This document shows, one piece after another, positions 1 through 64,000 of a stretch of DNA of 64,000 nt. Position 1 is the stretch's first letter. Each line of letters opens with the position of its first letter. The notes beneath the pieces are model-generated. The model ran no database searches. It had not been told where the DNA came from and saw nothing but the letters and a program-made list of their open reading frames with translations. This stretch comes from Raillietiella orientalis (Eukaryota), in the NCBI GenBank assembly GCA_036172245.1, contig JAYWIR010000043.1:1-64000 (forward strand). The letters run 5' to 3'. The position numbers were made by a program, and so were the translations under genes.

Positions 1-3000
1 CGAACGGATCTCCGGAGGGCGGCTATGGTACAGGTGTCGGAGAGCGAAAAGTTGCGGTGTCGCCTACCTGCTTCGGCCAGCCGTCGAGGCCGCGGCTCAG
101 GGCGTGCGGTTCGACGATCAAGGTCCTGTCGGCCAGCTGACTCTCAGGTGGTCCGACTCGATCGATCTGATCGTCACGAACGTGTACGCACCGAGCGGCA
201 GGGACCTGATGAACAGGAGGGCGAGAAAAGAGTTTTTCCTTGCCCTCCGGCGAGACTGGCTGACCAAAGCAGGCCTGCGTAATGCCCATCTGGTTGCAGG
301 CGATTTCAACGTTCGCGTAAAACCAGATGAGCAGAATCCCGAGCCTGACCTCGTCAAGGAGGTGTGCATGGCGGTGCACATCTGTAATCTGTTTTTCAGT
401 GCACCGGTAATGGAAGACAGCATTGACCACGTGTTTCTTGACGAGCACCTGTGCCCTCGCGTGGGCAGGCTCGGCAAGTTACCGTGCGAGCTGTCCGACC
501 ATCGCCCGCTAGTCCTCGAGATCCATCCGCGCGACAGGGGCCCCCCTTCGTCAGCGTGGCGTCTCCCAGGGGACTGGCTGAAGCTCCCGGACGCGGGGGA
601 ACATCTCCGCACGTTCATACGGAGCTTCAGCCTGCGAACACTCCAGGATTGGGACCCCTTCAAGCGGTCGGTCCAGGAGTTCTGCGACCAGTTCCCTCTG
701 CACCGCCTACCTACGGGTTTTGGGACCGGGGTACGTAACGAACGAGCCTACCTGCAGGCCCATCCTTACGCCAGGACTTCTGACATCCGCAGGATGTCGG
801 AATACAAAACGGGAGCCGAGAGGCAAGCCTGGCAGTCCGGATCGGCCAGCTTACTGGACGATCAAGGCCAGGAGCACTCCGCACCTGCCCAAATCCGCGG
901 CCTGCTGCGGAGTTACTACTCCTCCCTGTATGCCAGGGCACCTCCGGAGAGGAACGTCTCACGACTTTTGCTTCCGGAAGGCGCTTCAGCGTTCGAGGAG
1001 GAGCAGAGAAAAACCCTCGACGAGCCTTTCACGATGGACGATATCCTCTCGCCGATCGGGAAGCTCAAGACGCGAAACGTTCCAGGGGAGGACGGCCTGC
1101 CCGCGGAGTTTTATCAAACTTTCGTGGCTGAGCTTACCCCCCTGGTACAGGAACTCACCTTGTTGATACGCGAAACATGTGACGTTCCCGCCTCGTTTCG
1201 TTCGGCAAAGGTGCGGCTGCTCCCTAAGGGAGGAGTTCTGAGAAGCATGAACAACTGGCGTCCCATCACATTAGTGAATGCGGACGCCCAGCTGATTGCC
1301 AAGATGTGGGCAGAGCGTCTGGGACGAATTGCCAACATATTTATCAGCCCGGTGCAGACATGTGCTGTTCCCGGGCGAAGCATGGAGGCGAACCTGTTCC
1401 AGGCTTCCACCTGGCTAGAGCTCCAACATGAAAGGAGCTGGGTGCGCAGCCGGAATTCCGGTGCGTGCACTGGCAAGTGGTTGGATGGTCGGGTGGGGGA
1501 GGGAGCGCTTACGGTAGGAATCGACTTGCGAAAAGCATTCGATTGCGTCGACCAGAATCTCCTTCTGGAGCTTCTGGAACGCTAGGGCTTCCCGGGCTCA
1601 TTAGTGGCCTATCTGCGCTCCTGCTGGCTCGACGCGCTCATCAACGTTAGTTTCAGCGGGCAGACCGTGCACGGCGTGCCGGTGCGGCGTGGGATCCGGC
1701 AGGGAGACAGCCTGAGCCCCTCGCTCTTCAGTACCTACTTTGAGTTGGTACTGAGAGCGTACAGGGGAACTCTGGCGCACCTGCCGCACGACTGTGCCGG
1801 TACGCCGGCCGTTTCAGCATACGCGGACGACCTTCTGCTGCTGCTCCCTATGTGCACCCTGGTTGCGGCGGTCGAGGAGTTCTTCGACCTGCTGCATCGG
1901 GGAACCGGACTTACGGTTAACAGGGCGAAGTCGTCCGTGATGCCAGTTGGTGCGGCGTGGGCAGGGCAGCAGGACTGGGTCCGTTTGGGGATCCCCACGG
2001 TGAGGTACTTCACCCGTTGGTGCGTCCCTGCAGGTCTCCTTCTCCAGCAAGCCACCGGCAAGACGGGACTGACTTCGTTCCATGCACTGTGTCGCAGCTT
2101 CAACCGATACGGACTCCAGATACGGAGGGTGGCTGCGCTGTATCGTAATAACCCAGGATTGCTCACCTGTCGCTTTTTGAACGGTAGTGCCTGGTTGCAG
2201 GAAATTGTTCGGACGTGGGGACAGTTCATCATGCAACGCTCCCAACAGGAACGAAGTTTCCTGTTTAGGGGTTACAGAAGTTGCACGCTCCGTGAGATCC
2301 TGGAGGATCCAAAGAAGAGAGCGTGGGCAGGAACAACACCCCTCGCTGCTGCGCTGCTCTCCCTGATGGAAGATCTTGACAGCGATGTTGCGGCGAAGTG
2401 GGTGGTTTCAGTTACAATCTCCGGAAAGGAGAAGAAGATAGGAGAGTGGAAGACGGGCCAGTTAACAGACGCTGCGTCCCCGAGTACGCCTCCCAATGTA
2501 CTTCTGCGCTGGGGCGCGCTGCTCGATGTTCCCATTGAACATCTGAAGTGGCCCCCGGTGCTCATGAACACTTCCGCCCTCCCCTTAAATATTCAGGAGC
2601 CGGCTCTGCAGTTGCAGCACTGGGGACTCCCTTGCAACGCCCGCCGATACCACTGGAACTGGGATGCGGTGGACCGCAATTGCGTCAGGTGTGGGGAACG
2701 GGAGTCCCATCCCCAGCTGCTAGTGGATTGTGTTGCCCTTTGGCCCATTTAATTTCGCTTTGCCGCGTCCATCGGAATCCCCTGCAACAACCGCAGGGAC
2801 GCACTGAAATCTCTCTTCGTTGCCGACGCCCTTCGGCCAGCGGCCTTGTTAGCAGCTTTGTGCTGCCTACGCGGGATCGTCACCGCTTGGAGCAAGGCTA
2901 CAAGAGGACAACGCGACCAGGGTGCCCTCCAGCCAGCCTCCTTGTTCCTGAGAAGGGCGTCCCGATGGCCTACCTGGATCCAGGAATACAGAAGGAGCTT

Positions 3001-3263
3001 GCCGGCATCCTGCAAAGGATGCAACGGCCCCACCAGCAACTGTGAACCCTTCCCTTACCCTCGCAACTTTTCTTTTCTTTTTTGTTTTGTATTTTATTTT
3101 TCTTCCTTCCTTCTGCTTCCGTGGTGAACCGTACCGGTCTGCGAACCGGTGACTCGGCAGGCTCTGTGTTTCTCCGTGCGTGGCTTGAGCAATGGTCCAG
3201 CCAATGAACGTCTTTAGAAATGTTTGTTTTTATAATAATGCCCCGGCGAGATCCGGGTGGAAA
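1..3263 (+). mobile_element. L1/Tx1-type non-LTR retrotransposon, family B; 5' part lies outside the window, ORF2 disrupted
   Basis: APE motifs (VTNVYAP, AGDFN, IDH, SDH), RT motifs (WRPITL, DLRKAFD, QGDSLSP, YADD) and CVRC-x7-Q-x4-C. Stops at 1583-1585 and 2750-2752, internal deletion near 2012. 3' hairpin CCCGG-N6-CCGGG at 3242-3257. Confidence 0.92.
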
Positions 3264-6200
3264 TCGAACGCCTTGTTGAGATCGACCGCGACCGCCAAGG
3301 CACCTGGCGTTCCCTCCTGCCGTCGGCGCCTGTTCTTATTGCCTGCGGCAGTGGCTTTCGCAGCAGCCTGGCTTTGCTGCGCCACAACTTCCTGCAGCTG
3401 CATCCATGCACTCGCGAAAAGGATGTTAGCCTCCGTGGATCTTCCCGGAACCGCGTAGGTTTGTTCCGGGCTCACCACGGATTCGGCGATACTTCCTAAC
3501 TGCACGACCCATAGCCTGAAAAACAACTTGACGTACGAGTTCACCAAGGTGATCGGACGCCAGTTGTCAAGTTCACGCAAGTCTCCGCCTTTCGGCAGGA
3601 GACGCACCTTCGCTGAGCGGAAGGAATCCGGGACATTCCCGGATTCACTCATCAGCGTCCCGAGTCTGAGCATCAAGGAAATGAGCTCCACTGCAAAGCA
3701 CTGATAAAACCCTGCAGGGAGCCCATCCTCGCCTGGCGCCTTTCGTCTCTCCAGCCCAGCAATGGCGGACGAAAATTCATCCGCCGTGAAGGGCTCGTTG
3801 AGACGTTCGCGTTCCTCCTCGCCGACAACACGAGCATCCTGACACAGGAGTATCTCAAAGAGAATATCTTCCGTCGGGGATTCCGCGTACAGAGAGGAGT
3901 AGTAGCGTCTCACAATGCGGCGTACTTCGGCTGGGGCCGAACATTCCTGGCCCTTGTCGTCCAACAGGCATGCTGCTCCGGACTGCGAGACCTGGCGCTC
4001 GGCCCTCGCCTTGTACTCTGCGAGACGCCCGACATCGGCGCGTCTCGAAAACGTGCGGGCCTGCAGAAAGTCTCTACTGTTGGCCACGCCCTCTTCGAAA
4101 CCGCGTGGAAGCCGGTGCAAGGGGAATTGGCAGCAGAACTCGCGAACAGATCTTTTGAGATCGTCCCAGTCCGCAGGTTCTTGAATGGCAAAGCCTCAAA
4201 GGTGTTTACGTAGATGCTCCGTAGCCTCCGGTTGGCTACGGTAATCCGCCTGCATCCTCCAGTTTTGCAACGGAGGCCCCCTGCCTGGCGGAAGGATCTC
4301 AAACTCCAACTTGTGGTGGTCAGAAAGTCTAGTCAAAAATCTTCCTCTCCTATCCACACGCGAATGCAGGTTTTCATCGAGGAAAACGTGATCGAGCGAT
4401 CTTCCCATCCCAGGTTCGCTGACCATCAAGTTGGCGGCGTGCACGGACGCGCACATCTCGATGGGCAGCGCGCGCTCCCTCGGGCGGCTCCAAGGGTCGG
4501 AGAGCAGGCGGACGTTGAAGTCCCCAGCGACGATGTGCGCCACTGGGAAGGCGGAGTTGTTGAGCTAGTGGCTCTGCACCTCACCAAAGAAAGCTACTCC
4601 TTCTTCAAGGTAGCGAGAGCCACTCGGCGCGTAGACGTTTGTAACAACGAGAACGATGGATTCGGATCACTTAATGACAAGTTGGCCTATCCGTCCGTTG
4701 TCATCGAAACGAACACTATGCATCGCTTCCGCCATTTTTTCTCTGATGAGGAACGCGACGCCGCACGTGTGTGCGCCGCCGCACCGCCAATATAGCGTTC
4801 TGCCTGCGCGCTGCTCCATTTCGGCTGTCTGCTTGTCGGAGATTACGTGAATCTCCTGCAGGAGCGCGAGGTCGAAGGGGCGCAGGGCGTTGGCTACTAA
4901 TCGCCTCTTCTCGTCGTTCTGTAGTTCGTTCACGTTCCAACACGTTACGGACAGACGACGAGAATACGCGATTCCCCGCATTACTGCTGGGAAGGTGGCT
5001 GCTTTTTGGTCGCTCTATGCGGCGAGCAGACGGCGAGCAGCACGACTGGCTGGAGTTGACGGTCGCCACCGCCCTCCGTCGTGCTGCATGCATGTAATGC
5101 CTCCACGCCAGGCTTAACCCCGTCCGGTTTCGTGGAGACTTCGCGTTGCTCCGCGGCGAGCGTTGCCTGGCTGCCTACTTCTGATCGGCGCCCACACTCT
5201 TTTGAACGAGTTGTCCTCGTCTCGGTGATCGGAACGGCATCCATTTCAGAGTCCGACCGGCGCATGTTCGATCGGGTTTCGGCCTTCCGCGAAGTAGTGA
5301 CAGGTTCTGCCGGATTGACAGCTGTCCTGCTGTCGTATTCCGTCACCAGAGCATCGCTTTTGGTGACGGCTGCTTTCCCGGCGCGCGCGTTCTCAGCGTG
5401 CTCAAGCGCAGTTGCACGAGGGACCTTTGCTGAAGTCTTCTTTACTTCATTACGGTTCCTCACTTCGCGTGGCGCCGTAAATGGAGATTGTGCTCTATTG
5501 CCATCTTTGAAGCCATTTTTGTTTTTGAACGATTGTACTTCCGATGGCTCCGACACGCTCGTCATGGGCGCTGCCTTCGGAAGGGCTTTCAATCCCTTCG
5601 TTTGCATGGTATCCGCGCCAGTCGAGAGCTTGTTCTCCCACTGAGACAGCTTGAGATGTTCCTCCGCTTTCGCGGTGTTGGACCGCGACGCGGATTTTAT
5701 TTTGCCGACTTTCGAAGTCGTCACGGCACAACTCTTCTCAGCGGATTCAAGCTTCTCAGCCGTTGCAGGATGAGAAGGAATGGATCTGACGGTACTGAAA
5801 GTGTCCTTTCCGCCGTTGTCCATTGGCGTCCCCGCCGGTTGCTCGAACTCCGAGAGAGCCGGGCGTGCTTGGGAACGACCGCCATTGCGCCTAAGAGGAC
5901 TTTTTCTTGCTCCAAATTCCCCGCACCCTTTCTTTTGCGGCTCCCCTGTTGCGACAGGGGTCGCGCAGGGCTTCGCGTGCGAGGCTTCTTGCTGCTTTGG
6001 GGCGACATTCCGCCTCGCATTTTCACGGAATTTCTGTCATGGTATCTCCGAGTTTTTCGCGGGTTTTTTCTTTTTTTCCGCGCTTTGTTCTTTGAGATGG
6101 AGCTCCGCAACTGCCTTTTTTCGCAAAAGATATGGGCAATTTTTCAATTGGTGGACGAAAAGATTGCAATAACGGCATTTTGCGGAGGGGCATTTATCCA

Positions 6201-6983
6201 AACAAGGCCCCTCCTTCCCGCATTGCTCGCACGTTCTTACTTTGCCAACGAACCTGAGGTGAACGACCGTGTCTTTCACCTGTAGTTTGGTAATCAGCAG
6301 ACGGCGGTCCGGAATTGTAAGCCGTACTCCAGCGACTCCGCTGTGTATGGACGGGATGTCCTTGAAGTTGCTACGCACCCTCCACAGCGCATGGACCGTT
6401 GCGAATGTTGCCAACGCGTTCCAAATATCAATGTCGGAGATTTTCGACTGGATGTCGAAAATCTCCGCCACAAATGAGTCGTCCATGGCGGCTGCGAAGG
6501 CCTTCTGGCCACGTATCGACAACGGGTTGAGCAGCAAGCGTTCCGCAAGTGCAGCGTCATTGCAACTCACTTTGTGATAGCCCATATCTTTTACGGGCAT
6601 AATGGCGAGTAGGTCCTCCTCCCGCACGCCAAAACGGGTCAGTTCATCGTTGACCTTCTTCCCGTCTAGCGCAGAAAGAAAACCACTCACCTTATATCAA
6701 AGAGCAGGTCTATAGCCTTGGGCTACGTATGCTTGCAACTCAGACTCGTCGGGTGGTCCTCCTTTGACGGCTGCTGTGGCAGCGACGTCAGCGAAACTCC
6801 TTTCCATTGGCGAGGCAGACGAAGAAAAGGCTGCAGTCGGTTCCGTGATTGCAGATCCGGACGGAATACCTCCAACTTCAGTAGCCTCGCGTTTTGTCGA
6901 CATTTTCGTCAAAATGCACGACAACAAGATGAAGGGGATGAAAGCACGGAGACGAGAGCGAAGAAAAACACGCCAGTACTCGA
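3264..6983 (-). mobile_element. Family A element: 5' end, disrupted ORF1 (6903-4981) and ORF2 up to the KAFD motif
   Basis: Closely matches the copies at 49932-64000. TAATG overlap at 4983-4979. Cut off at AVDLNKAFD by the element at 1-3263. Confidence 0.92.
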
Positions 6984-7156
6984 TTAAAGTCTCCCGCTAT
7001 CAGGTGCGCCCGCCGAAAGCCTGCTTCGGCCAACAAGTCTCGCCGCAGGGCTTCAAAGAACGCAGTGCGTTCTCCGCGCCTGTGGCTGCTGTAGTGCGCG
7101 TATACGTTCGTGACCACGAGATCGATCGACACGGACCACTTGAGAACAAGTTGCAT
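6984..7156 (-). mobile_element. APE endonuclease fragment of a host element, ending at GDFN
   Basis: Translates as KWSVSIDLVVTNVYAH...AHLIAGDFN, followed directly by the family A 5' end. Confidence 0.85.
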
Positions 7157-8930
7157 AGCTCCACCTTCCTCGTAGACTCGGAGACTTCTTCGATCTGCTC
7201 AGCCGCGGAACCGGACTGCAGATTTACAGGGCGTAGTCGTCGGTGGTGCCAGTAGGTGCGGCGTGGGCAGAGCAGGGGTACTGGGTCCGTCTACGGATCC
7301 CCATGGCGGGGTCCTTCAAGAACCTTGGTGTGCCGTTGGGGGAATACTCCCCTGCGGAAGCGTGCTCCGGCTGCCTCCAGAAAGTCGAGACGGCGATCGG
7401 CCCGTTCCTGGAAGGCAAGTTTCATTTGCCGGAACGGGCCGCGGTTTGGAACGTCTTCGCGGCGCCCATCCTCCGTTCCTTGCTTTTTTTTGGCCCCCCC
7501 ACTGTGGAATCTAAGAAGAGGACGAAGGACCTCCTTCGTATCGCCCTTTGGAGCGAAGAGAGGCGTCGAGTCCCTTTGAAGGACTTGTGCGCTCCGCGTC
7601 GTGACGGTGGTCTTGGCCTTCTGACGCTGGAGCGCGTGGAGAAGCAGCGGCGTTGACGAACCTTCGCCATCGCAGCGAAGATGTGGAGCACCCCTTGGTG
7701 CACTCTGGCCCGCCTCCTGGCCAGCGATGTGTCCCAGTGCTATGGACTCGCGTCTTTTCTTCTGAGCCGTGGCCGGAAGATGTGAAGTTGCGGCCTTCTG
7801 CTCGAGCGCATGGCACCATTGGCTAAGGAGAACAGCTGGATGGTTTGCTGCCCCGCCAATTTCCCCGCCTGGTTGGAGAAGATTAGTGGAACTTTGGCAG
7901 TGGTAAACCAGCGGAGCCACGAGACGTGGAATCGTCTCCGATGCAGCCCCTTCGCCTGCTGCACGCTGCGGAATTTCCTGTAGAATGCAGCAAGAAGCAC
8001 GTGGGCAGAGACTACCTGCCTAGCTACGGCGGTGGCCTTCCTGAGGAGGGCACTTAACAGCAGCCGGACGCCAAGGTGGCAAGTCTCCTGCGGCATCGAG
8101 GGACGGGACAAGATTAGCTGCTGGACAACAGGAGAAATAGCAGACGCCACGACCTCGAGCGTCCAGCCGCGAGGATTATCAAGATGGGGCGAGCTCCTCG
8201 CCATCCCAAAGGATGAACTGAAGTGGCACTCGGTGATGAAAGAATCCGGGATCCTGCCCCTCAATTGGCAAGAGTCGGCGTTGCTCCTCTTGCACTGGGG
8301 TCTACCCTGCAACGCGCGCCGCTTCCACTATACGAGGGGAGCTGTGGATCCTTTGTGTATCAGGTGCGGAGAGCGGGAATCGCTCTCCCACCTTATTGTG
8401 GACTGTGCTGCCCTTCGTCCCCTTTAGGAACGGTTTGGGACGACCCTCGGTCTCCATACGGGCAGTTCCCCTAGAGACGTTCTTCGGTCCCTCTTCGTGA
8501 AGGACGCCCTGCAGCCAGCCGCAGCCATCGCAGCCTTGTGCTACGTCCGTGGCATCGTGACGGCATGGAGCGACGCCAACATCGAAGGAGTGGTTCCACC
8601 CCCGAGGGATGTCATCGCATATGCCCAACGCTTCTTGCAAAGAGCTGCCGGATGGCCATAACTGGTGAATATGCGGATGGACTTCGAGTGCTTCTTTCAA
8701 CGGATGAGACCTACTCACAGCGAATAGTGATCCCTTCCCTGCCCTCCAACTTCTTTTTGTTCGTTTATTTTTTAATTTTTTATTTGTTTTATCCCCATCC
8801 CCCTTCGCTGTCGTGGAGTGTCACGCCGGGCTACGTACCGTTGTCGCGACAGGTCCTGTGTTTACGGCCGTGGTGGGACCTCATACCACACATGTAGAGT
8901 TTAAAAGCTCTGAGCGTTCCCGTGTGATAA
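7157..8930 (+). mobile_element. 5'-truncated L1/Tx1 element (family D): ORF2 C-terminal half and 3' UTR
   Basis: FKNLGVPLG, DLCAPRRDGGLGL and CIRCGERESLSHLIVDC, then a T-rich UTR and a degenerate GTGATAA end. Confidence 0.85.
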
Positions 8931-10170
8931 CGCCGAAACCAGGAGGGAGACGGTTCAGGGGAAACTGGTCGCAGAACTCGCGGACTGAGCTCTTTAAGTC
9001 GTTCAAGTCCGTTAGCGCCTTCAGATGAAATCTTTGCAGGAACTAGCGAAGATGTTGGGCTGCTCCTGCGAGACGCAACCAGTCCCCTGGTAAACGCCAC
9101 GCTGTGGAGGGTGGACCTCTACCACGCAAGTGTATTTCTAGCACGATCCGGGGATGGTCGGAAGGTTCGGATGGCACTGCCCCTCGATTTCCTACCTGCG
9201 AACACAGGTAGTTGTCGAGGAACATGTGGTCGATCCTCGTCTCCGTCCCGGCGTTACCGACCAACAAGTTGCGCGCGTGCATGGCAGCGCACATCTCGTT
9301 GACCAGCTGTGCGCGAATGTCGGGCGCAGCTGCCAGCAGGCGGACGTTAAAGTCCACGGCAATGGGGTGCGCCTTTTGCATGTTTGCTCCGGCCAGCCAA
9401 TTTGGCCGCAGGCTTTCGAAGAACGCAGTGCGTTCCCCGCGCCTGTGGCTCGTGCCGGGCGCATAGACGTTGGTCACGACGATGTCGATCGTGTCGGAGC
9501 ACTTGGCAACAAGCTGCCCGATTTGACCTTCCCCGTCGAAGTGCACCTCGCGCAGCGCATTAACGACGGCTGGCTTGAGCATGAAAGCAACACCGCGGGT
9601 GCGGTCACTCCCGTTTTGGTATATGAGCCGCCCGCCTGCGATCCGTTCGATTTTTTGGGCCTCCACTGCGTGGAGCACGTGCGTCTCCTGCAGAAGCGCC
9701 AGGTAGAAGTCCCGCAGGCTGGCGGCCACTTCTCTCCTCTTGCCGTCGTCGCGCAATCCGTTGACGTTCCAACAGATTACGCGCAGTCGCCAGCAGGAGG
9801 AGAGTCCACGCGTTGGTGTGTTTATGGTGTTTGCTTACCGTCCTTTGCCTCCTGATCAGCATGCGGGGGTTGTGTTTCCATTGCGACGGGCTATTCCTCG
9901 CAAGGAGGTGGTCCGTCGGTGGTTGTGGTGGTCGTTGGAGGATCCTGCTTGGCCAAGGCCGCCTCCGGCGAGGAGTCGCGAGACCTCGCGGACATCGCCT
10001 CTCCGTCGTGGTGGTCCGACCGCATTTCCTCCTCCGCCGGTAGATTTGCGGAGCGCCGCAGGTTGCCTACCTTGCGGCCCTCTTTGCGCTTCGGGAGAAC
10101 GACAGCCGTATCGTTGCCTGATTCGGCTTCCGACTCGGAAGTTTCAGGTCCTTCCGCCTTAGCAGGGTGC
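8931..10170 (-). mobile_element. L1/Tx1 fragment: ORF1 tail, APE domain and start of the linker
   Basis: ORF 9043-9756 has LLQETH, VTNVYAP, DFN, IDH and SDH. The fragment ends at QFPLNRLPPGFG. Confidence 0.85.
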
Positions 10171-14859: not shown

Positions 14860-15544
14860 GCACTGCGTGTGTTGCATTGGGAAATCCTTTGCCAAGCACG
14901 TTTTACTCTGGACGATAGAATAAGCAGATTCCAATTGTACCAGCAGCTAGGCAAGCTGAAACATTCCTTACCTACTATTGAAATATTACGGTTTCCTCCC
15001 AATGTGAAATCGAATTACGTGGAGTTTAGACATGCAACTTGCCGAGGCAGACAAATTTTTCCATCAACTCCAGATATAGGTCGCCCTGCTAAGAGCTGCG
15101 CCTGTAGCAGTTCTGTGTAGCAAACGCAGTATCCTGGATAAACTAACTGCATCGAGATGAGGCCACGACAGCCGGAATGCCATTCACCGGGCAGCCACCT
15201 CCATGGAGAAAGGTTCCATATGTCTCCAGCTTCAAACATTCTGATCTACACATGTTCGCATCTAATACCGGATGTAGAGGACCAGTCACGCTGAGTAGCG
15301 ATCGCTTTTCTCTCTTCCCCGGAGAACATGGACGCCTCTCATGCATTTTTGATTTGTGGTTGCTTGTGGTTCTCTTATCGCCAGCGCCAGTTACGAGGAC
15401 CTCACCGGCCTGCAAGCCTCTGAAGGAAAGTGTCAGAAGACGGGCAAAACCACGTGCTCTTCCGGAAAAATACTTTTAAACTTCATGGTATCATTTTTTT
15501 TTTATAATTGTAATTACAGATATCCTAGTAAATCCAGGTGAAAA
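14860..15544 (+). mobile_element. Decayed 3' fragment of a family C element
   Basis: Resembles the reverse complement of 42500-42930 (RNAIH segment). Ends in CCAGGTGAAAA. Confidence 0.65.
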
Positions 15545-17552: not shown

Positions 17553-17690
17553 ATCTAACCTGACGTAGCGTAACCTAACGTAACCTAACCTACCCCTTCC
17601 CCTCACTTCCCAATGTAAACTAATTTAACAAACCCCTACCTCTACTGTCCAACCTAACTTAACCTTACCTAACGTACACTATCGTAACCA
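17553..17690. repeat. Degenerate (CCTAA/TTAGG)n-like tract
   Basis: taacctaacgtaacctaacctacc ... aacctaacttaaccttacctaac. Confidence 0.65.
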
Positions 17691-17774
17691 CTATCTCTAC
17701 GCAGTTTTCTTTTTCCTGTTGTAACTTCACCACTTTTCTCTCCTTAATTGGATTTCTTTATTTCGTTTTTCCTT

Positions 17775-47231: not shown

Positions 47232-47621
47232 TTTATCACTCGGGTGAAACGAAGCGTTTATTGTAAACTATCTGGGAACAGGGTTCCTGGACAAAGGGGA
47301 AAACAAGAGTCCAAGGGCGTGGGATACCCGACACGCAGGTCGGTATGCCAAAAGTCCTGAACGGGAGGGAAGGGACCGCAAATACACTACTATAAAAAAA
47401 TAAAAGAAAAATATGGAGGGCAGGGGAAAGGGATCTTTGATGAGTCCGTTCCTACCTTTCAAATCCGGCAATGGATGCCGGCGATCTCTCTCCTTACGCC
47501 CTGTGGCAGATGGGCCCACTCGGCAGCCGACGACATGGTTTTGCTGGCTAATCCGGTGAGCTGACGGAAGATGGCAGATAGGATCTGCTGTTCGCGACAA
47601 CCTCCCGGAATCCCTTGGCGA
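47232..47621 (-). mobile_element. Internally deleted element: linker stub joined to ORF2 C-terminus and 3' end
   Basis: KGFREVVANSR, then AHLPQGVRREIAGIHCRI*, then AATAAA...GTGATAAA. Confidence 0.7.
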
Positions 47622-49931: not shown

Positions 49932-49939
49932 TCGAGTGC

Positions 49940-49952
49940 GGACGTGTTTTTC
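49940..49952 (+). promoter_or_regulatory. 5' GGACGTG-T-tract motif, candidate internal promoter element
   Basis: Also at 37865, 41479, 45201, 55855 and 61756, always within about 10 bp of an element 5' end. Confidence 0.45.
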
Positions 49953-50011
49953 TTCGCTCTCGTCTCCGTGCTTTCATCCGCTTCATCTTGGCGTCGTACA
50001 TTTTGACGACG

Positions 50012-54900: not shown

Positions 54901-55526
54901 GAACCAAACTCCTTGGCACCTGGAAGACAAGTGAGTTGGCGGACGCCGCCACTCCTCGGGTTACTGCAAAGGGACTCCTCCGGTGGGCAGAAGAACTTGC
55001 TGTCACCCCCGAAGAACTTGTAGTCCCTCCACAGTGTAAGGACAGTTCGCTGCTCCCCCTTTCTGGGGAACAAGCCGTGCTGCTTTTCGTTCACTGGGGT
55101 TTTCAGTGCAACGAGCGTTGGCATCGTGACTCCGGGGGACTTGCGTCTGCGAACTGCGTTCGGTGCGGATCGACGGAGTCGATTCCGCACCTACTTCTGG
55201 ACTGCGGTGTCCTACAAGGACTGTGGCGTAGGCTGGCAACAGCACTATTGCATCCCGTTGACACCGCAAGAGACTTGCTGCGACGATTCTTCACGCCGAG
55301 CGGGCTTTCAGTAAGCGCAAGGATTGCAACCATCGGTTGCATCCGCGCGATAGTTTCCGTCCGCCAGGCGTTGGTAATCAACGGACAGTACCAAGAGGTA
55401 ATCAGCAAAGCATCCTTCTACATGGGAGCATCCGCTAGATGGCCTCATTTGACAGAGGAGACAAAGAGGAATCTCGCCGCAATACACCGCCGGTTTACAC
55501 CCCCTCATCAGCGGCCAACCCGGTGA
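51934..55526 (+). pseudogene. ORF2 (APE endonuclease, RT, CCHC) with a 1-bp deletion near 52639 and TAG at 52773-52775
   Basis: WNVNG, LQE, GDFN, SDH, KAPGEDG, KAFD, QGD, YADD (53928-53939) and CVRCGSTESIPHLLLDC. Lesions identified by comparison with copy 2. Confidence 0.92.
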
Positions 55527-55809
55527 TCATTGCCCTACCCTCCATAAACTAAATTTGTATTTTCTTTTTACACCCGCGTCCCCATAGGCTCCGGAACATT
55601 TGAGGTGCTCATCGTTTAAATCCCCGTGAGTACGGAGCCTAACCAAAAACCCTTTTCCCTTCCCTCCAGTTTTTGATTTTTGTTTGTTTCCCCTCATTCC
55701 CCCCACGCTGCGAGCGGTTTGTTTACCAGGCCGGCGTGGCGGTAATTTTTCTATGTTCTCTGTCGTTCTGTTGGTTGGGGACATTGTCCCTGACCAGTTT
55801 ATTATTATT

Positions 55810-55839
55810 AATAAACGCCCCGGCGTGACCGGGTGATAA
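55810..55839 (+). terminator. Element 3'-terminal signal: AATAAA plus CCCGG-N5-CCGGG hairpin plus TGATAA
   Basis: A related motif occurs at about ten other element ends in the window. Confidence 0.6.
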
Positions 55840-55926
55840 ATTTCAATCGAGTGCGGACGTGTTTTTCTTCGCTCTCGTCTCCGTGCTTTCATCCGCTTCA
55901 TCTTGGCGTCGTACATTTTGACGACG

Positions 55927-57846
55927 ATGTCGACCCAACTTGAAGCTACTGAAGTTGGAGGAACAGCATCCGGATCTGCAATCGCGGAACCGACGGCCGC
56001 CTCCACTTCGTCTTTCTCGCCAATGGAGAGATTTGCTGACGTTGCTGCCACAGCAGCCGTCAAACGAAAACCACCCGACAAGTCGGAGTTGCGGGCATAC
56101 GTAGCCCAAGGCTATAGACCTGCTCTCCGAAATAAGGTCAGTGGTTTTCTTTCTGCGCGCGACGGGAATCAGTTCAACGATGAACTGACCCGTGTTGGCG
56201 TGCGGGAGGAGGACCTTCTCGCCATTATGCCCGTAAAAGACATGGGCTATTTCAAGGTGCGTTGCAAAGACGCTGCACTTGTGCAACGCTTGCGGCGCAC
56301 CCCGTTGTCGATCCGTGGCCAGAAGGTCTTCCCGGCCGCCATGGACGACTCATTTGTGGTGGAGATTTTCGACATCGAGTCGGAAATCTCCGATACTGAT
56401 ATTCGGAACGCGTTGGCGAAATTCGCCACGGTCCATGCGCGGTGGAGGGTGCGTAGCAACCTCAAGGACTTCCCGTCCATACACAGCGGAGTCGCTGGAG
56501 TCCGGCTTACAATGCCGGACCGCCGTCTGCTGCCCACCAAACTACAGGTGAATGACACGGTCGTTCACCTGTGGTTCGTGGGCAAAGTAAAAACGTGCGA
56601 GCAATGCGGGAAGGAGGGGCATTGTTTGGATAAATGCCCTTCTGGAAAATGCTGTTATTGCAAACTATCCGGGCACCAGTTGAAAAATTGCCCGGATCTT
56701 TTGCGAAAAAAGGCAGCCGTGGAGCTCCATTTTAAAAAACAAAACGCGGATAAAAAAAAAAAATCTGCGAAAAACCTGGAGACCCCACGGCAGAAATTCG
56801 GTAACAACGCGAGGCGGAATGTCGCCCCAAAGCAGCAGGACACCTCGCACGCGAAGCCCTGCGCACCCCCTCTCCCGGCAGGGGAGCCGCAAAAGAAAGG
56901 GTGCGGGGAATCCGGGGCAATGGTAAGTCCCCCTAGGCGCAATAGCTGTCCTTCCCAAGCACGCCGGGCTCTCTCGGAGTTCGAGCAACCGGCGTGGACG
57001 CCAATGGACAACGGCGGTAAGGACACTTCCAGTACCGTCAGATCCATTCCTTCACCTCCTGCAGTGGCTGAGAAGCCCAAATCGGGTAAGAAGTGTTGTG
57101 CCGTTTCGACTTCGAAAGTCGGCAAAAAAAAATCCGCGTCGCGATCCAACACCGCGGAAGCGGAGAAAAATCTCACGCCGTCGCAGTCGGAGAGCAAGCT
57201 CTCGACTGGCGCGGATGCCATGCCAACGAAGGGATTAAAATCCCTTCCGAAGGCAGCGTCCATGACGAGCGTGTCGAAGCCATCCAAAGTGCTCCCGTCC
57301 AAAGACGCGGATGGCTTCAAAGATGGCAATGGAGCACAATCTCCATTTACGGCGCCACGCGAAGTGAGGAACCGTAATGAAGTAAAGAAGACTTCAGCAA
57401 AGGTCCCTCGTGCAACTGCGCGTGAGCACGTTGAAAACGCGCGCGCCGGGAAAGCAGCCGTCACCAAAAGCGATGCTCAGGTGACGGAAAACGAAAACAG
57501 GACAGCTGTCAATCCAGCAGAACCTGTCACTGCTTCGCGGAAGGCCGAAACCCGATCGAACATGCGCCGGTCGGACTCCGAAATGGATGCCGTTCCGATC
57601 ACCGAGACGAGGACAACTCGTTCGAAAGCGTGTGCGCGCCGATCAAAAGTAGGCAGCCAGGCAACGCTCGCCCCGAAGCAACGCGAAGTCTCCACGAAAC
57701 CCGACGGGGTTCAGCCTGGCGTGGAGGCATTACTTGCATGCAGCACGACAGAGGAGGGTGGCGACCGTCCCCTCCAGCCAGTCGTGCTGCTCGCCGTCTG
57801 CTCGCCGGATAAAGCGAGCAAAAAGCCGCCACCTTCCCAGCAGTAA
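55927..57846 (+). CDS. ORF1 protein, family A copy 2
   Basis: Open frame, near-identical to copy 1. Confidence 0.9.
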   Translation: MSTQLEATEVGGTASGSAIAEPTAASTSSFSPMERFADVAATAAVKRKPPDKSELRAYVAQGYRPALRNKVSGFLSARDGNQFNDELTRVGVREEDLLAIMPVKDMGYFKVRCKDAALVQRLRRTPLSIRGQKVFPAAMDDSFVVEIFDIESEISDTDIRNALAKFATVHARWRVRSNLKDFPSIHSGVAGVRLTMPDRRLLPTKLQVNDTVVHLWFVGKVKTCEQCGKEGHCLDKCPSGKCCYCKLSGHQLKNCPDLLRKKAAVELHFKKQNADKKKKSAKNLETPRQKFGNNARRNVAPKQQDTSHAKPCAPPLPAGEPQKKGCGESGAMVSPPRRNSCPSQARRALSEFEQPAWTPMDNGGKDTSSTVRSIPSPPAVAEKPKSGKKCCAVSTSKVGKKKSASRSNTAEAEKNLTPSQSESKLSTGADAMPTKGLKSLPKAASMTSVSKPSKVLPSKDADGFKDGNGAQSPFTAPREVRNRNEVKKTSAKVPRATAREHVENARAGKAAVTKSDAQVTENENRTAVNPAEPVTASRKAETRSNMRRSDSEMDAVPITETRTTRSKACARRSKVGSQATLAPKQREVSTKPDGVQPGVEALLACSTTEEGGDRPLQPVVLLAVCSPDKASKKPPPSQQ

Positions 57847-60800
57847 TGCGGGGAATCGCGTCTTCTCGTCGTCTGTCGGTAACGTGTTGGAACGTGAACG
57901 GACTGCAGAACGACGAGAAGAGGCGATTAGTAGCCAACGCCCTGCGCCCCTTCGACATCGCGCTGCTGCAGGAGATTCACGTAATCTCCGACGAGCAGGC
58001 AGCCGAAATCGAAGAGCGCGCAGGCGGAACGCTACATTGGCGGTGCGGCGGAGCACACACGTGCGGCGTCGCGTTCCTCGTAAGAGGAAAAATGGCGGAA
58101 GCGGTGCGTAGTGTTCGTTTCGATGACGACGGACGGATAGGCCAGCTTGTCATCAAGTGGTCCGAGTCCATCGATCTCGTCGTTACGAACGTCTACGCGC
58201 CGAGTGGCTCTCGCTACCTCGAAGAAAGAGTAGCTTTCTTTGGTGAGGAGCAGCGCCAGTGGCTCAACAACTCCGGCTTCCAAGTGGCGCATCTCGTCGC
58301 TGGGGACTTCAACGTCCGCCTGCTCTCCGACGATTGGAGCCGCCCGAGGGAGCGCGCGCTGCCCATCGAGATGTGCGCGTCCGTGCACGCCGCCAGCTTG
58401 ATGGTCAGCGAACCTGGAATGGAAAGATCGCTCGATCACGTTTTCCTCGATGAAAACCTGCATTCGCGTGTGGGTAGGAGAGGAAGATTGTTGACTGAGC
58501 TTTCTGACCACCACAGGTTGGAGTTTGAGATCCTTCCGCCAGGCAGGGGGCCTCCGTTGCAAAGCTGGAGGATGCAGGCGGATTGGCTTAGCCAACCGAA
58601 GGCTGCGGAGCATCTACGTGGATACCTCCGGGGCTTTGCCATTCAAGAACTTGTGGACTGGGACGATCTCAAAAGATCTGTCCGCGAGTTCTGTTGCCAA
58701 TTCCCCTTGCACCGGCTTACACGCGGTTTCGGAGAGGGCGTGGCCAACAGTAGAGACTTTCTGCAGGCCCGCACGTTTTCGAGACGCGCGGATGTCGGGC
58801 GCCTCGCAGAGTACAAGGCGAGGGCCGAGCGACAGGTCTGTCAGTCCGGAGCAGCATGCCTGTTGGACGACAAGGGCCAGGAATGTTCGGCCCCAGCCGA
58901 AGTACGCCGCTTTGTGAGACGCTACTACTCCTCGCTCTACGCGGAATCCCCGACGGAGGATATTCTTTCTGAGATACTCCTATCTCAGCATGCTCGTGTT
59001 GTCGGTGAGGAGGAACGCGAACGTCTCGACGAGTTCTTAACGGCGGATGAATTTTCGTCCGCCATCGCTGGGTTGAAGAGACGAAAGGCGCCAGGCAAGC
59101 ATGGGCTCCCTGCAGAGTTCTATGGGTGCTTTGCAGTGGAGCTCATTCCCTTGATGCTGAAACTCGCGACGCTGATGAGTGAATCCGGGAATGTCCCGGA
59201 TTCCTTCCGCTCAGCGAAGGTGCGTCTCCTGCCGAAAGGCGGAGACTTGCGCCAACTTAACTGCTGGCGTACCATCACCTTGGTGAACTCGGACGTCAAG
59301 TAGTTTTCCAAGCTGTGGGTCGCGCGGTTAGGAAGAATCGCGGAATCTTTGGTGAGCCCGGAACAAACCTACGCGGTTGCGGGACGATCCATGGAGGCGA
59401 ACATCCTTTTCGCGCGTACATGGATGCAGCTGCAGGAAGTTGTGGCGCAGCAAAGCCAGGCTGCTGCGAAAGTCACTGCCGCAGGCAAAAAGAACAGGCG
59501 CCGACGGCAGGAGGGAACGCCAGGTGCCTTGGCGGTCGCGGTCGATCTCAACAAGGCGTTCGACTGCGTAAACCAGAAGCTGCTTTTGGAGCTTATGGAA
59601 CGCTTTGGGTTCCCGGCGCAACTCCTGCTGTATTTGCGCGCGTGCTGGCGCCACGCGCTAACCTGCATCACTCTTAGCGGCTGCCGCGTGTATGGTATTC
59701 CCGTTCGTAGGGGCATCCGACAGGGCGACAGCTTAAGCCCGTTGCTCTTCAGCATCTTCTTTGAGTTGGTGCTAAGAGCATACAGGCTGACGCTGTCTCA
59801 CTTGCCAAGCTCCTGCCCGGGAACGCCTGCCGTGGCCGCCTACGCTCATGACCTGCTTCTTCTGCACCCCATGTCCACCCCGGCGTCCAGTGTCGAGGAT
59901 TTCTTCGACCTGATTCGTCGGGGAGCGGGCGTGAGCGTGAACAGAGAGAAGAGCGTGGTCGTTCCTGTGGGTACGTCGTGGGAGGGGCAGTCTACCTGGA
60001 TCCGCCTGGGGATCCCCACGGGCGGGTACTTTGAGTACCTTGGCGTTCCGTTGAGCGCTTTCGTGCAAGCCAACGTGGACAGCTGTCTTCAAGCAGAGTT
60101 GGCCTGGCCGTTCATTAACAACAAGTTTACCTTGAAGGAACGGGCCATTATTTGGGCCTTTGTGGCCCCCCTCCTCCGTCCCCTGTTTTTTGTTTTCGAC
60201 CTTCCCTATGCGGCAAAACAGCGGGCTAAACGCCTGCTCAGGAACGCTCTCTGGGGTCCGGCGAGATCCAGGATCCGCCTTAAAGATTTGTTAGCTCCTC
60301 GTCGGGATGCTGGTTTGGGTATCCAGACAATGGAGCGAATCGGACTGCAGGTGCAGTTCCGACTGCTGGCACTGTGTGCCCAGCTATGGACATCCCCCCT
60401 GTGTGTGCCAGCTCGCATTCTCCTGCGGAGATGCGCCGGCAGTGGTAGATTTCTCTCGCTTTTGCCGGGCACTCAATACAGGAAGCGGGGTTTCGGGTTT
60501 CCATTGCGGCAGTTGACCGCACTTCTGGAAGCACACTCTTGGATCTCCTGCCGCCCAATGAACTTTGAAACTTGGCGGCAGGAGTCTGTTGAATCCTGGG
60601 CGACGTTCCAAGGAATACGCCCTGAAGATCTTCGCCCCCTGCGCCAATTTTTTCCACGATCCTTGGGAGAAGGACTGCAGGACGAGGTGAAGTTTTCTAC
60701 CCTGGCTGCCACGCCTCTTGCCGCAGCGCTGTCTGCCCTTAGGGCGAGAAACGACAGTTACCAACCGGCGAGGTGGGAGGTTTCCTGCACGATAGCGGGA

Positions 60801-61427
60801 AGAACCAAACTCCTTGGCGCCTGGAAGACGAGTGAGTTGGCGGACGCCGCCACTCCTCGTGTTAATGCAAAGGGACTCCTCCGGTGGGCAGAAGAACTTG
60901 GTGTCACCCCCGAAGAACTTGTAGTCTCTCCACAGTGTATGGACAGTTCGTTGCTCCCCCTTCCTTGGAAACAAGCCGTGCTGCTTTTCGTTCACTGGGG
61001 TTTTCAGTGCAACGAGCGTTGGCATCGTGACTCCGGGGAACTTGCGTCTGCGAACTGCGTTCGGTGCGGATCGACGGAGTCGATTCCGCACCTACTTCTG
61101 GAGTGCGGTGTCCTACAAGGACTGTGGCGTAGGCTGGCAACAGCACTATTGCATCCCGTGGACACCGCAAGAGACTTGCTGCGACGATTCTTCACGCCGA
61201 GCGGGCTTTCACTAAGCGCAAGGATTGCAACCATCGGTTGCATACGCGCGATAGTTTCCGTCCGCCAGGCGTTGGTAATCAACGGACAGCACCAAGAGGT
61301 AATTAGCAAAGCATCCTTCTTCATGGGAGCAACCGCTAGATGGCCTCATTTGACAGAGGAGACAAAGAGGAATCTCGCCGCAATACACCGCCGGTTTACA
61401 CACCCTCATCAGCGGCCAACCCGGTGA
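57846..61427 (+). pseudogene. ORF2 copy 2 with TAG at 59301-59303 and YADD changed to YAHD
   Basis: tac gct cat gac at 59841-59852. Several small deletions at about 60060-60160. Confidence 0.9.
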
Positions 61428-61747
61428 TCACTGCCCTACCCTCCATGAACTAAATTTGTATTTTTTTTTTACACCCGCGTCTTCATAGGCTCCGGAACAT
61501 TTTAGGTGCTCATCGTATAAATCCCCGTGAGTACGGAGCCTAACCAAAAACCCGTTACCCTTCCCTCCAGTTTTTGATTTTTGTTTGTTTCCCCTCATTT
61601 CCCCCACGCTGCGAGCGGTTTGTTTACCAGGCCTGCGTGCCGGTAATTTTTCTATGTTCTCTGTCGTTCTCTTGGTTGGGGACATTGTCCCTGACCAGTT
61701 TATTATTATTAAAAAACGCCCCGGCGTGACCGGGTGATAAATTTCAA

Positions 61748-64000
61748 TCGAGTGCGGACGTGTTTTCTTCGCTCTCGTCTCCGTGCTGCTTTCATCCGCC
61801 ATCTTGGCGTCGTACATTTTGCGACGACGATGTCGACCCAACTTGAAGCTACTGAAGTTAAAGGAACAGCATCCGGATCACACAATGGGAACCGACGGCC
61901 GCCTCCACTTCGTCTTTCTCGCCGATGGAGAGGAGTTTTGCTGACGTTGCTGCCACAGCAGCCGTCAAAGGGAAACCACTCGACGAGTCGGAGTTGCGGG
62001 CATACGTACCCCAAGGCTATAGACCTTCTCTCCGATATAAGGTGAGTGGCTTTCTTTCTGCGCGCGACGGAAATCAGTTCAACGATGAACTGACCCGTGT
62101 TGGCGTGCGGGAGGATGACCTTCTCGCCATTATGCCCGTAAAAGACATGGGCTATTTCAAGGTGCGTTGCAAAGACGTTGCACTTGTGCAACGCTTGCTG
62201 CGCACCCCGTTGTCGATCCGTGGCCAGAAGGTCTTCCCGGCCGCCATGGACGACTCATTTGTGGCGGAGATTTTCGACATCGATTCGGAAATCTCCGATA
62301 TTGATATTCGGAACGCGTTGGCACAATTCGCCACGGTCCATGCGTTGTGGAGGGTGCGTAGCAACCTCAAGGAGTTTTCGTCCATACACAGCGGAGTCGC
62401 TGGAGTCCGGCTTACAATGCCGGACCGCCGTCTGCTGCCCACCAAACTACAGGTGAAAGACACGGTCGTTCACCTGTGGTTCGTGGGCAAAGTAAGAACG
62501 TGCGAGCAATGCGGGAAGGAGAGGCATTGTTTCGATAAATGCCCTTCTGGAAAATGCCGTTATTGCAAACTATCCGGGCACCAATTGAAAAATTGCCCGG
62601 ATCTTTTGCGAAAAAAGGCAGCCGCAGAGCTCCATTTTAAAAAACAAAGCGCGGATAAAAAGAAAAAATCTGCGAAAAACCTGGAGACTCCAAGGCAGAA
62701 ATTCCGAAATAACGCGAGGCGGAATGTCGCCCCAAAGCAGCAGGAAACCTCGCACGCGAAGCCCTGCGCGCCCCCTCTCGCGGCAGGGGAGCCGCAAAAG
62801 AAAGGGTGCGGGGAATCCGGGGCAATGGTAAGTCCCCCTAGGCGCAATAGCTGTCATTCGCAAGCACGCCCGGCTCTTTCGGAGTTCGAGCAACCGGCGG
62901 GGACGTCAATGGACAACGGCGGTAAGGACACTTCCAGTACCGTCAGATCCATTCCTTCACCTCCTGCAGTGGCTGAGAAGCCCAAATCGGATAAGAAGGG
63001 TTGTGCCGTGTCGACTTCGAAAGTCGGCAAAAAAAAATCCGCGTCGCGTTCCAACACCGCGAAAGCGGAGAAAAATCTCACGCCGTCGCAATCGAAGAGG
63101 AAGCTCTCGACTGGCGCGGATGCCATGCCAACGAAGGGATTAAAATCCCTTCCGAAGGCAGCGTCCATGACGAGCGTGTCGAAGCCATCCAAACTGCTCC
63201 CGTCCAAAGACGCGGATGGCTTCAAAGATGGCACTGGAGCACAATCTCCATTTACGGCGCCACGCGAAGTAAGGAACCGTAATGAAGTAAAGAAGACTTC
63301 AGCAAAGGTCCCTCGTGCAACTGCGCGTGAGCACGCTGAAAACGCGCGCGCCGGGAAAGCAGCCGTCACCAAAAGCGATGCTCTGGTGACGGAAAACGAA
63401 AACAGGACAGCTGTCAATCCAGCAGAACCTGTCACTGTTTCGCGGAAGGCCGAAACCCGATCGACCATGCGCCGGTCGGACTCCGAAATGGATGCCGTTC
63501 CGATCACCGAGACGAGGACAACTCGTTCGAAACCGTGTGCGCGCCGATCAAAAGTAGGCAGCCAGGCAACTCTATCCGCGAAGCCACGCGAAGTCTCCAC
63601 GAAACCCGACGGGGATAAGCCTGGCGTGGAGGCATTACATGCATGCAGCACGACAGAGGACGGTGGCGACCGTCCCCTCCAGCCAGTCGTGCTGCTCGCC
63701 CTCTGCTCGCCGGATAAAGCGAGCAAAAAGCCGCCACCTTCCCAGCAGTAATGCGGGGAATCGCGTCTTCTCGTCGTCTGTCCGTAACGTGTTGGAACGT
63801 GAACGGACTACAGAACGACGTGAAGAGGTGATTAGTAGCCAACGCCCTGCGCCCCTTCGACCTCGCGCTCCTGCAGGAGATTCACGTAATCTGCGACGAG
63901 CAATCAACCGAAATCGAGGAGCGCGCAGGCGGAACGCTACATTGGGGGTGCGGCGGCGCACACACGTGCGGCGTTGCGTTCCTCGTAAGAGGAAAAATGG
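61748..64000 (+). mobile_element. Family A element, array copy 3, running off the window
   Basis: Starts 5901 bp after copy 2. TAATG at 63749-63753. Confidence 0.93.
61925..63751 (+). CDS. ORF1 protein, family A copy 3 (ATG at 61830 is out of frame because of indels)
   Basis: 608 open codons, near-identical to copies 1 and 2. Confidence 0.8.
   Translation: MERSFADVAATAAVKGKPLDESELRAYVPQGYRPSLRYKVSGFLSARDGNQFNDELTRVGVREDDLLAIMPVKDMGYFKVRCKDVALVQRLLRTPLSIRGQKVFPAAMDDSFVAEIFDIDSEISDIDIRNALAQFATVHALWRVRSNLKEFSSIHSGVAGVRLTMPDRRLLPTKLQVKDTVVHLWFVGKVRTCEQCGKERHCFDKCPSGKCRYCKLSGHQLKNCPDLLRKKAAAELHFKKQSADKKKKSAKNLETPRQKFRNNARRNVAPKQQETSHAKPCAPPLAAGEPQKKGCGESGAMVSPPRRNSCHSQARPALSEFEQPAGTSMDNGGKDTSSTVRSIPSPPAVAEKPKSDKKGCAVSTSKVGKKKSASRSNTAKAEKNLTPSQSKRKLSTGADAMPTKGLKSLPKAASMTSVSKPSKLLPSKDADGFKDGTGAQSPFTAPREVRNRNEVKKTSAKVPRATAREHAENARAGKAAVTKSDALVTENENRTAVNPAEPVTVSRKAETRSTMRRSDSEMDAVPITETRTTRSKPCARRSKVGSQATLSAKPREVSTKPDGDKPGVEALHACSTTEDGGDRPLQPVVLLALCSPDKASKKPPPSQQ

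Follow-up and report, generated by a model that had tools for sequence, protein, structure and literature searches.

In 28S rDNA and in telomeric repeats, several site-specific lineages of long interspersed nuclear elements (LINEs) share one multicopy target: R1 and R2 in the former and TRAS and SART in the latter occupy different fixed sites or take opposite orientations, and re-use of a site gives rise to arrays. The targets listed for LINEs at large comprise rRNA, spliced-leader, tRNA and snRNA genes, microsatellites, telomeric repeats and 'transposons' (Kojima & Jurka 2015, PMC4640811). Excerpts of further work record transposons inserted into transposons, with Tx1 into Tx1d and Tourist into Tourist as the examples (Cosby et al. 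2019, PMC6719617), the self-nesting L1 clusters formed by Zepp and ZeppL in green algae (PMC3446292, PMC8226300, PMC9940879) and subtelomeric arrays of Cnl1 in Cryptococcus (bioRxiv 10.1101/2021.08.11.455996). Here we analyze a 64,000-nt stretch of the genome of Raillietiella orientalis (GenBank assembly GCA_036172245.1, contig JAYWIR010000043.1, positions 1 to 64,000 of the forward strand; hereafter the window), which is eukaryotic repeat DNA without N and holds a nested cluster of L1-like retrotransposons that lack long terminal repeats. As an earlier note on this DNA had proposed, lineages of this family have inserted repeatedly and independently at fixed nucleotides in conserved codon blocks of open reading frame 2 (ORF2) of their siblings, and we hold with good confidence that site-specific insertion of sister LINE lineages into sibling elements accounts for the pattern.

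The described systems each share part of this behavior. Tx1L, inserted in Tx1D of Xenopus, is an L1-group LINE of the APE endonuclease type with strict sequence-specific insertion into another transposable element (TE), as are the elements here; in that case, however, one lineage uses an unrelated DNA transposon, whereas in the window at least three to four sister lineages use different codon blocks of their relatives' ORFs. For R1/R2 and TRAS/SART the target is a host gene or repeat, while here it is the elements' own coding sequence. Zepp and ZeppL, in the excerpts that describe them, resemble the present elements in the insertion of an L1-type element into existing copies and in the resulting GC-rich nested clusters and tandem arrays, and between 41.5 and 64 kb of the window nested clusters have likewise formed by insertion into existing copies. 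Yet Zepp is presented there as one family per genome, with arrays made mostly of 5'-truncated 3' ends, and those excerpts describe no lineage-specific sites in coding motifs; the elements of the window, for their part, have no poly(A) tract, carry an AATAAA-like signal and match named fish and plant L1 proteins at 31% identity or less. Cnl1 arrays and the Tourist-in-Tourist miniature inverted-repeat elements are also cases of one TE family clustering upon itself, though the passages available on them describe neither a codon-block target nor sister lineages with separate sites. Our literature search, which did not extend to the primary Zepp papers or Repbase Reports, found no report of sister LINE lineages that target different codon blocks of their relatives. 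The pattern is an extension of sequence-specific APE-type LINEs and of self-nesting LINE clusters, and is not categorically new.

The elements share a plan in which an ORF1 of ~670 amino acids (aa) is accompanied by an ORF2 made up of the APE domain (Exo_endo_phos), a linker and a reverse transcriptase (RT; RVT_1), as read from stop-to-stop ORFs and Pfam. Profiles built from the window's own ORF pieces and scored in six frames gave common coordinates for all fragments, and each boundary was then inspected at the nucleotide level; elements are named by letters, with (-) for those on the minus strand. Eight full-length 5' starts have (C/G)N..GGACGTGTTTTT in common, and ten 3' termini share an AATAAA-like box, the hairpin sequence CCCCGG..CCGGGTG and a short tail (the 3' ends inspected include 55796-55840, 41416-41460, 42226-42270 on the minus strand, 12985-13029 and 47232-47276 on the minus strand). 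Because the termini are defined in this way, insert and target can be distinguished at every junction. AATAAA lies ~20 nt before the terminus, exact in five of nine aligned 3' ends and with one mismatch in three more, and the tails read GATAA, GGAAA, GAAAA or GTAAA, with just 2-5 A and neither a poly(A) nor a simple-repeat tail. This suggests that the RNA 3' end may be made by cleavage at a poly(A) site, and that the DNA copies do without the poly(A). The 3' hairpin is conserved as a sequence, with almost no covariation (one of five pairs). Hallmarks of target-primed reverse transcription are present, namely variable 5' truncation (B1, e, g, m, n and G2 are truncated copies), a defined 3' end and target-site duplication. 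The flanks of the ten 3' termini are antisense KAFD codons of the RT in three cases, the GDFN remnant ATTTCAAT of the APE in two, antisense GFG codons of the linker in one, uncertain in one and elsewhere in sibling ORFs in three; those of the eight 5' starts are GDFN in sense (two), a tandem remnant (two), antisense KAFD (one), antisense GFG (one), probable GFG (one) and uncertain (one).

About 12 junctions at only three homologous ORF2 positions had been claimed for this DNA, and our own count of an element terminus against a sibling at GDFN, KAFD and GFG is 12, or 13 with one uncertain case; the restriction to three positions is true of these junctions, but three further terminal junctions lie elsewhere in the window. 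The individual junctions previously placed at 49931, 3263 and 45198 were confirmed, and lie at 49932/49933, 3263/3264 and 45182-45201. Five junctions lie at GDFN, in sense, and belong to clade A. E2 (47622-49932, plus strand), which comprises a 5' end, ORF1 and the APE as far as GGAGATTTCAAT (GDFN), reads ...GCGGGAGATTTCAAT up to 49932/49933 and is followed there by CGAGTGCGGACG, with which A1 begins. E2 serves as target for a head-to-tail A array (49933-64000, plus strand) of A1 (49933-55839), A2 (55848-61740) and A3 (61749-64000, cut by the window end), whose copies are ~96% identical and whose two tandem joints (55839/55848 and 61740/61749) each consist of the GATAA tail, exactly the 8 nt ATTTCAAT (spacers at 55840-55847 and 61741-61748) and the next 5' start. 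On the minus strand, E' (6983-7189), an f-like APE fragment of aa 96-164, terminates exactly at GGAGACTTTAAT (GDFN), and the junction at 6983 reads ...GCGGGAGACTTTAAT followed by CGAGTAC.., the 5' start of A(-) (3264-6982, minus strand), an A-family copy with a full 5' end that is 91-92% identical to A1. The remaining GDFN junction, an old one at 22908, lies within 22742-24013 (plus strand), where an old AT-rich APE fragment terminates at ..GGTTTCAAC (G-FN); next to it, in sense, stands l23, an old relative of A that is truncated at its 5' end (RT ~aa 411-782).

Four junctions lie at KAFD, in antisense, and belong to clade B. B1 (2012-3263, plus strand) is a 5'-truncated B-lineage copy that extends from RT aa 573 through the 3' hairpin to its GGAAA tail; it ends ...CCGGGTGGAAA at 3263/3264 and adjoins TCGAACGCCTTG, the antisense KAFD of A(-), which is thereby cut at RT aa 292 (AAGGCGTTCGA). 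Element n (29349-30947, plus strand; B lineage, RT aa 459 to a GAAAA tail) adjoins TTGAAGGCTTT at 30947, the antisense KAF(N) of o(-) (30948-31295, minus strand), a target RT fragment of aa ~177-292 that is cut after AAAGCCTTCAA. Just upstream, m (27917-29294, plus strand), the 3' part of a B-lineage element, carries its GAAAA tail to 29285 and then a 9-nt KAFD remnant, TCGAATGCT, before n. The fourth is a 5' junction at 37853, where p(-) (36595-37853, minus strand), the C-terminal half of a target RT that begins at ..CGTAAAGCGTTCGAG (KAFE), terminates ..TCGAACGCTTTACG beside the 5' start of G1 (37854-38951, plus strand); G1 has GGACGTG at 37865 in its 5' end, reaches as far as aa 337 of ORF1 and represents a separate ORF1 lineage. 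As an observation apart, the RT fragments at 27518-27703 (minus strand) and from 27917 (plus strand) stand head to head, ~210 nt apart, and both start near RT aa 528, at the KDLCA motif.

At GFG, three junctions and one uncertain one lie in antisense and belong to clade e/E/F. Element e (7190-8930, plus strand; 5'-truncated, RT ~aa 405 to a GATAA tail) adjoins CGCCGAAACCAGGAGG at 8930 in f(-) (8931-9834, minus strand), a target comprising the linker (..RLPPGFG on the coding strand, cut after GGC G) and APE aa 2-243. At 45182, C(-) (42226-45182, minus strand), a C-lineage copy that extends to a GAAAAA tail at 42226, is cut within its GFG codons, and E1 (45183-47231, plus strand; ORF1 and APE to ~aa 71) follows, with 18 nt of filler or 5' start before GGACGTC at 45201. 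The junction at 47621 is probable: X(-) (47232-47621, minus strand), an A-like fragment with a 3' untranslated region (UTR) and GATAAA tail, an RT C-terminus and a linker piece, presents the 16 residues LAKGFREVVANSRSYL of that linker next to the E2 5' end, and these match the A1 linker at 10 of 16 positions against a shuffled maximum of 9 in 30 windows. The uncertain junction is at 41460, where the 18 nt CCTCCAAGGCAAGTTGGA (41461-41478), which correspond to antisense NLPWR, separate the tail of G2 (39289-41460, plus strand; e lineage, RT aa 349 to a GTAAA tail) from the 5' start of F (41479-42225, plus strand), which belongs to the E/F ORF1 lineage, comprises a 5' end with ORF1 as far as aa 247 and is itself cut by the 3' end of C(-). 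Between 41.5 and 64 kb the elements thus stand in a nest of at least five levels, F > C(-) > E1 > X(-) > E2 > A array. At the three motifs each lineage occupies a fixed site in a fixed orientation, and the occupied fraction of sites in the window is three of eight APE copies at GDFN, three of nine RT copies at KAFD and three of seven linkers at GFG.

To examine the assignment of sites to lineages, 11 fragments covering RT residues 573-890 were placed in a maximum-likelihood tree (quick search, Shimodaira-Hasegawa-like approximate likelihood ratio support). The groups (B1,m,n), (e,G2) and (C-,p) have supports of 99, 98 and 96, and (g,(A1,A2,l23)) has 100 as a whole and 94 for (A1,A2,l23), so that every recurrent site belongs to one clade, in agreement with the earlier statement that each position is used by one lineage in a fixed orientation. 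As l23 is a long-branch, AT-rich relative of A that stands at the same GDFN bond, its position suggests that the GDFN specificity may be old. By ORF1 sequence, E1, E2 and F form a group at 64-79% and stand apart, at 31-42%, from G1, A and h/i. The grouping agrees with E/F as 5' halves of the lineage that targets GFG and with G1 as a 5' half of the one that targets KAFD, putative assignments made in a window that has no full-length copy joining 5' to 3' halves. The targeting was also said to be mutual and to resemble a cycle of A, B and C through a C element with a B-like RT. Mutual insertion has some support, with A in E2, E2 probably in the linker of the A-like X and B in A, but the cycle is not supported: over the RT C-terminus, C(-) shares 38-39% identity with B, 36-37% with A and 38-40% with e/G2, no closer to B than to the others, and C(-) groups with p as a clade of its own, with its own target in ORF1.

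Most junctions at the three motifs arose independently. Over 211 nt, the two flanks targeted at GDFN (E2 and E') have 63.5% identity, as against 85.5-88.7% for the adjoining A inserts, and E' is 63% identical to f in aa sequence as opposed to 46% to E2. Of the KAFD targets, A(-) has 93.7% identity to A1, in which the site is intact, but 55.9% to the target o; identity among the inserts B1, m and n is 69-74%. B1 therefore inserted later than the A family spread, and was not copied from the m or n insertions. The 5' flanks of E1 (GKGLRNKR) and E2 (LAKGFREVVANSR) are unrelated. Descent of the recurring junctions from single insertions by segmental duplication, which the earlier note had named as the outcome that would overturn it, thus fails for the junctions across families. 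In the A array, a block at 49925-58095 repeats at 55840-64000 with 96.3% identity, so its two A-A joints may be duplicates rather than new events. Among 11 independent events, seven pairs coincide in site and orientation where 0.24 are expected, and none of 200,000 simulations of random placement reached seven pairs, even at a tolerance of 25 nt; chance clustering is excluded.

Short-read contigs from a public run (X1), the one run that holds the stretch (0.67 of its words), were placed on 49400-55900; two other runs (X2 and X3) have next to no cover of it. Among the contigs listed, at least three read from the A tail through ATTTCAAT into in-frame ..FN LRLLTVDPKT, which is APE sequence just past GDFN, and this 3' junction of A together with the 5' junction in the window is an 8-bp target duplication (ATTTCAAT). 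At least two others pass from a tail into antisense VISAGGAAE, the same APE position and register as the insertion of g into h at 13029; the h copy there reads QISAEHVRE, so the contigs represent a different copy and the position becomes a fourth recurrent site. At least two contigs have a g-like 3' UTR just upstream, and these may or may not be the VISAGGAAE pair. The ends of one 3755-nt A contig fall at 49904, next to the GDFN junction, and at 53657, next to the KAFD site.

The anatomy of the junctions agrees with what target-primed reverse transcription by sequence-specific endonucleases would produce. We propose that the endonuclease of each lineage would read one sequence of ~10-20 bp that encodes a conserved protein motif of the family. 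The lineage would nick this site in a sibling and prime reverse transcription there, with the cDNA starting at the very end of the tail of an RNA that would terminate ~20 nt past the AATAAA-like signal, in the hairpin and a short A-rich tail. A second nick 7-18 nt away and joining of the 5' end, either precise and full-length or variably truncated, would leave a short target duplication. For clade A, the junctions indicate sense insertion at GG(A) G^ATTTCAAT^ in the GDFN codons with an 8-bp duplication, the first nick probably falling on the non-coding strand at G^ATTTCAAT. Clade B would insert in antisense after a coding-strand nick following AAR GCN TTC GA^ (KAFD) and duplicate 14 bp or more; clade e/E/F in antisense after a coding-strand nick following GGN TTY GGN N^ (GFG), with a duplication of 7 to ~18 bp; and lineage g in antisense after a putative nick following ..GAG A^ in the N-terminal region of the APE. 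Lineages C and X have one observed site apiece. Re-use of a site would yield head-to-tail arrays in which copies are separated by the duplicated target bases alone, and successive insertions would yield onion-like nests. Overlap between tail and target is at most ~1 nt, so, barring the use of read-through transcripts, pairing of the RNA end with the target does not account for where insertion occurs, and the site is probably read by the endonuclease. As to benefit, it is a reasonable inference that conserved codons offer a safe, abundant and slowly changing target, and that each insertion would also disable a competitor.

Four other explanations deserve consideration. Preference for a short motif of 5-8 bp throughout the genome, with insertions into siblings as the harmless survivors and a TE island biasing the view, is unlikely in our estimation. 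It gains from the shortness of the shared target sequence (T(C/T)GAA for B, and ATTTCAAT / ACTTTAAT for A) and from the fact that all flanks are siblings, as they must be where the whole window is TE sequence. A 5.9-kb element, however, holds many copies of any 5-8 bp motif, yet the identical nucleotide and orientation were used by three of three B termini, three A-clade events and three e/E events, and the best-supported X1 loose ends after an A-type tail, among those listed, again lead into APE sequence of a sibling. Multiplication of a handful of original insertions by segmental or tandem duplication is very improbable as a general account. The repeated block with its two identical A-A joints speaks for it, as does the 87% identity of E1 and E2 over ~1.95 kb, but in comparisons between families the divergence of flanks and that of inserts differ widely, in one direction or the other; E1 and E2 have unrelated 5' flanks, and B1 sits in a young A copy while B1, m and n have drifted well apart. 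Duplication is refuted for at least eight junctions and is left for the A array, where unequal crossing-over looks alike.

Chimeras might also arise at recombination or template-switch hot spots, placed at conserved motifs, between co-packaged RNAs. Same-strand non-canonical joins do occur, between C1 RT aa 448 and B1 RT aa 573 and between G1 ORF1 and the G2 RT, though these are not at the three motifs; every recurrent junction has a complete terminus on one side, either a 3' tail or a 5' start, two of the three sites join opposite strands, and the overlaps are like target-site duplications, all of which makes this explanation highly improbable. We give a similarly slight probability to assembly artefacts in which repeats were joined at shared words. 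The region is highly repetitive, and the sole run with the stretch is probably the source sample of the assembly, but the two sides of a junction (a 3' tail and an antisense codon block) share no sequence and so offer no word for mis-joining, and short-read contigs built apart from the assembly reproduce the A-tail/GDFN and g-type junctions.

Set against site-specific insertion into siblings, which remains our interpretation, are several observations that weigh on the other side. Our flank, site and occupancy counts come from one 64-kb window, in which no insertion has both flanks matching. Four 5'-truncated inserts with a canonical 3' junction have an upstream flank that does not match the 3' target; at these non-canonical joins (2011/2012, 7189/7190, 9834-10169 and 38951-39289) an unrelated internal position of another element precedes the insert, as could result from deletion at 5' joining, template switching or later deletion. 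Three of the ten 3' termini lie at other positions in sibling ORFs: that of g at 13029 (antisense APE ~aa 62 of h/i), that of X at 47232 (antisense APE ~aa 71) and that of C(-) at 42226 (antisense ORF1 ~aa 247). The G2 flank at 41460 lies ~7 nt off the e/f nick position, with just 18 nt left of it, and X carries a large internal deletion. The A copies' own GDFN reads GGGGACTTCAAC (52390-52401, 58302-58313 and 4514-4525) where the sites struck by A read GGAGATTTCAAT (49921-49932) and GGAGACTTTAAT (6983-6994); the differences are synonymous and could bear on self-avoidance by A, but at just ~4 of 24 nt they do not prove it. The endonuclease domains of the B lineage and of e are absent from the window, so no particular APE sequence is tied to a particular site. 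The X1 contigs, given their provenance, are supporting evidence from among those listed and not a census, and the three with the A 3' junction may represent the far end of the same array.

Candidate readings of the less regular joins were also tried. The termini at 13029 and 47232 were rejected as one site because they are 27 nt (9 codons) apart, and element i is not cut at the ORF1 site of C(-), since it reads through. At 2011/2012, RT aa 448 of C1 is joined directly onto RT aa 573 of B1 on the same strand. C1 (1-2011, plus strand) is a C-lineage ORF2 fragment from APE aa 64 to RT aa 448 with 79.8% nt identity to C(-); C1 and B1 as one internally deleted element was rejected, as C1 is 80% nt identical to C(-) while B1 has no nt match to it and only 39% aa identity. 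All three sites are intact in C1 (GDFN 299-310, GFG 710-723, KAFD 1532-1542), and KAFD is intact in C(-) (44363-44373). The g element (10169-13029, plus strand), of a sister lineage of A, runs from RT aa 72 to a GAGAAA tail, and its target h/i(-) (13030-14607, minus strand) extends from APE aa 1-62 back into ORF1.

The domain content of the family is that of L1-like elements at some remove from described ones. A1 scores E=4e-13 for Exo_endo_phos and E=4e-20 for RVT_1, and the nearest ESM Atlas clusters to the RT are named LINE-1 ORF2. A C-terminal zinc motif of ORF2 is weak (zf-RVT, E=0.006, 17.7 bits, under the gathering score), and ORF1 matches no Pfam family at E<=5, with CX2CX4HX4C Cys/His knuckle strings visible in its translation. 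The closest outside protein is a metagenome fragment of 57% identity that is intact across KAFD, and the remaining protein matches, to fish and plant L1-like sequences, are at 33% identity or less. No named Tx1 reference was found among the protein-search or ESM Atlas matches and no algal protein among the named protein matches, and a metagenome scan with an alignment of the A1 RT and P0001 returned a single distant locus (25% identity). By these sequence comparisons, the element family is isolated from outside proteins. In A2, APE and RT share one frame with a 496-aa open stretch; its ORF2 (57813-61424) passes from the APE through the linker to the RT without a change of frame and is interrupted by one in-frame stop near 59301-59303. 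A1 is one base short after 52638 relative to A2, A(-) and a run contig, which separates its APE and RT frames, and its ORF1 is open over 672 codons. With reading frames so nearly intact, the A family looks young.

Elsewhere, the window is 55-59% GC toward both ends, as against 42-46% in the block between 16 and 28 kb. An AT-rich block (14874-27700, 42-46% GC) holds older, strongly diverged L1-like fragments and two duplications, of 14874-15878 with 20127-21160 (76%) and of 15941-17481 with 24275-25810 (77%). About 5 kb at 31300-36500 have no L1 profile match and a strongly negative GC skew (-0.15), and ORFs of at least 90 aa there gave no real Pfam match and one weak sub-threshold match; Pfam on 56 ORFs of 13.2-36.4 kb gave no real match and two weak sub-threshold ones. 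Rfam at its gathering threshold found no match to RNA genes in the whole window, and TRF found one tandem repeat (42-bp unit, 2.3 copies, 37991-38087), so the classical targets of site-specific LINEs are not present in the window. This repeat sits in the 5' region of G1, upstream of its ORF1.

A wider picture can be drawn, to which we would give somewhat less than an even chance. In it, the elements would form a closed 'ecosystem' of at least four, perhaps six, sister lineages whose endonucleases are aimed at different conserved codon blocks of the family's own ORF1 or ORF2, reciprocal hyperparasites (A in E, E in A-like, B in A) with an old specificity that dwell almost wholly within each other and whose targets are kept by purifying selection on the victims' proteins. 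In time, gene-free islands would build up, of a kind that can turn centromere-like. If true, sister lineages that divide the coding sequence of their own family among themselves would represent a new target niche and a clear case of transposon-on-transposon parasitism. Close relatives with different bonds and orientations would be a natural experiment on how APE specificity changes, which would be useful for the engineering of targeted insertion. The locus further suggests that TE-only nested and tandem islands, as found at Zepp-type centromeres, can arise from sequence-specific self-targeting alone.

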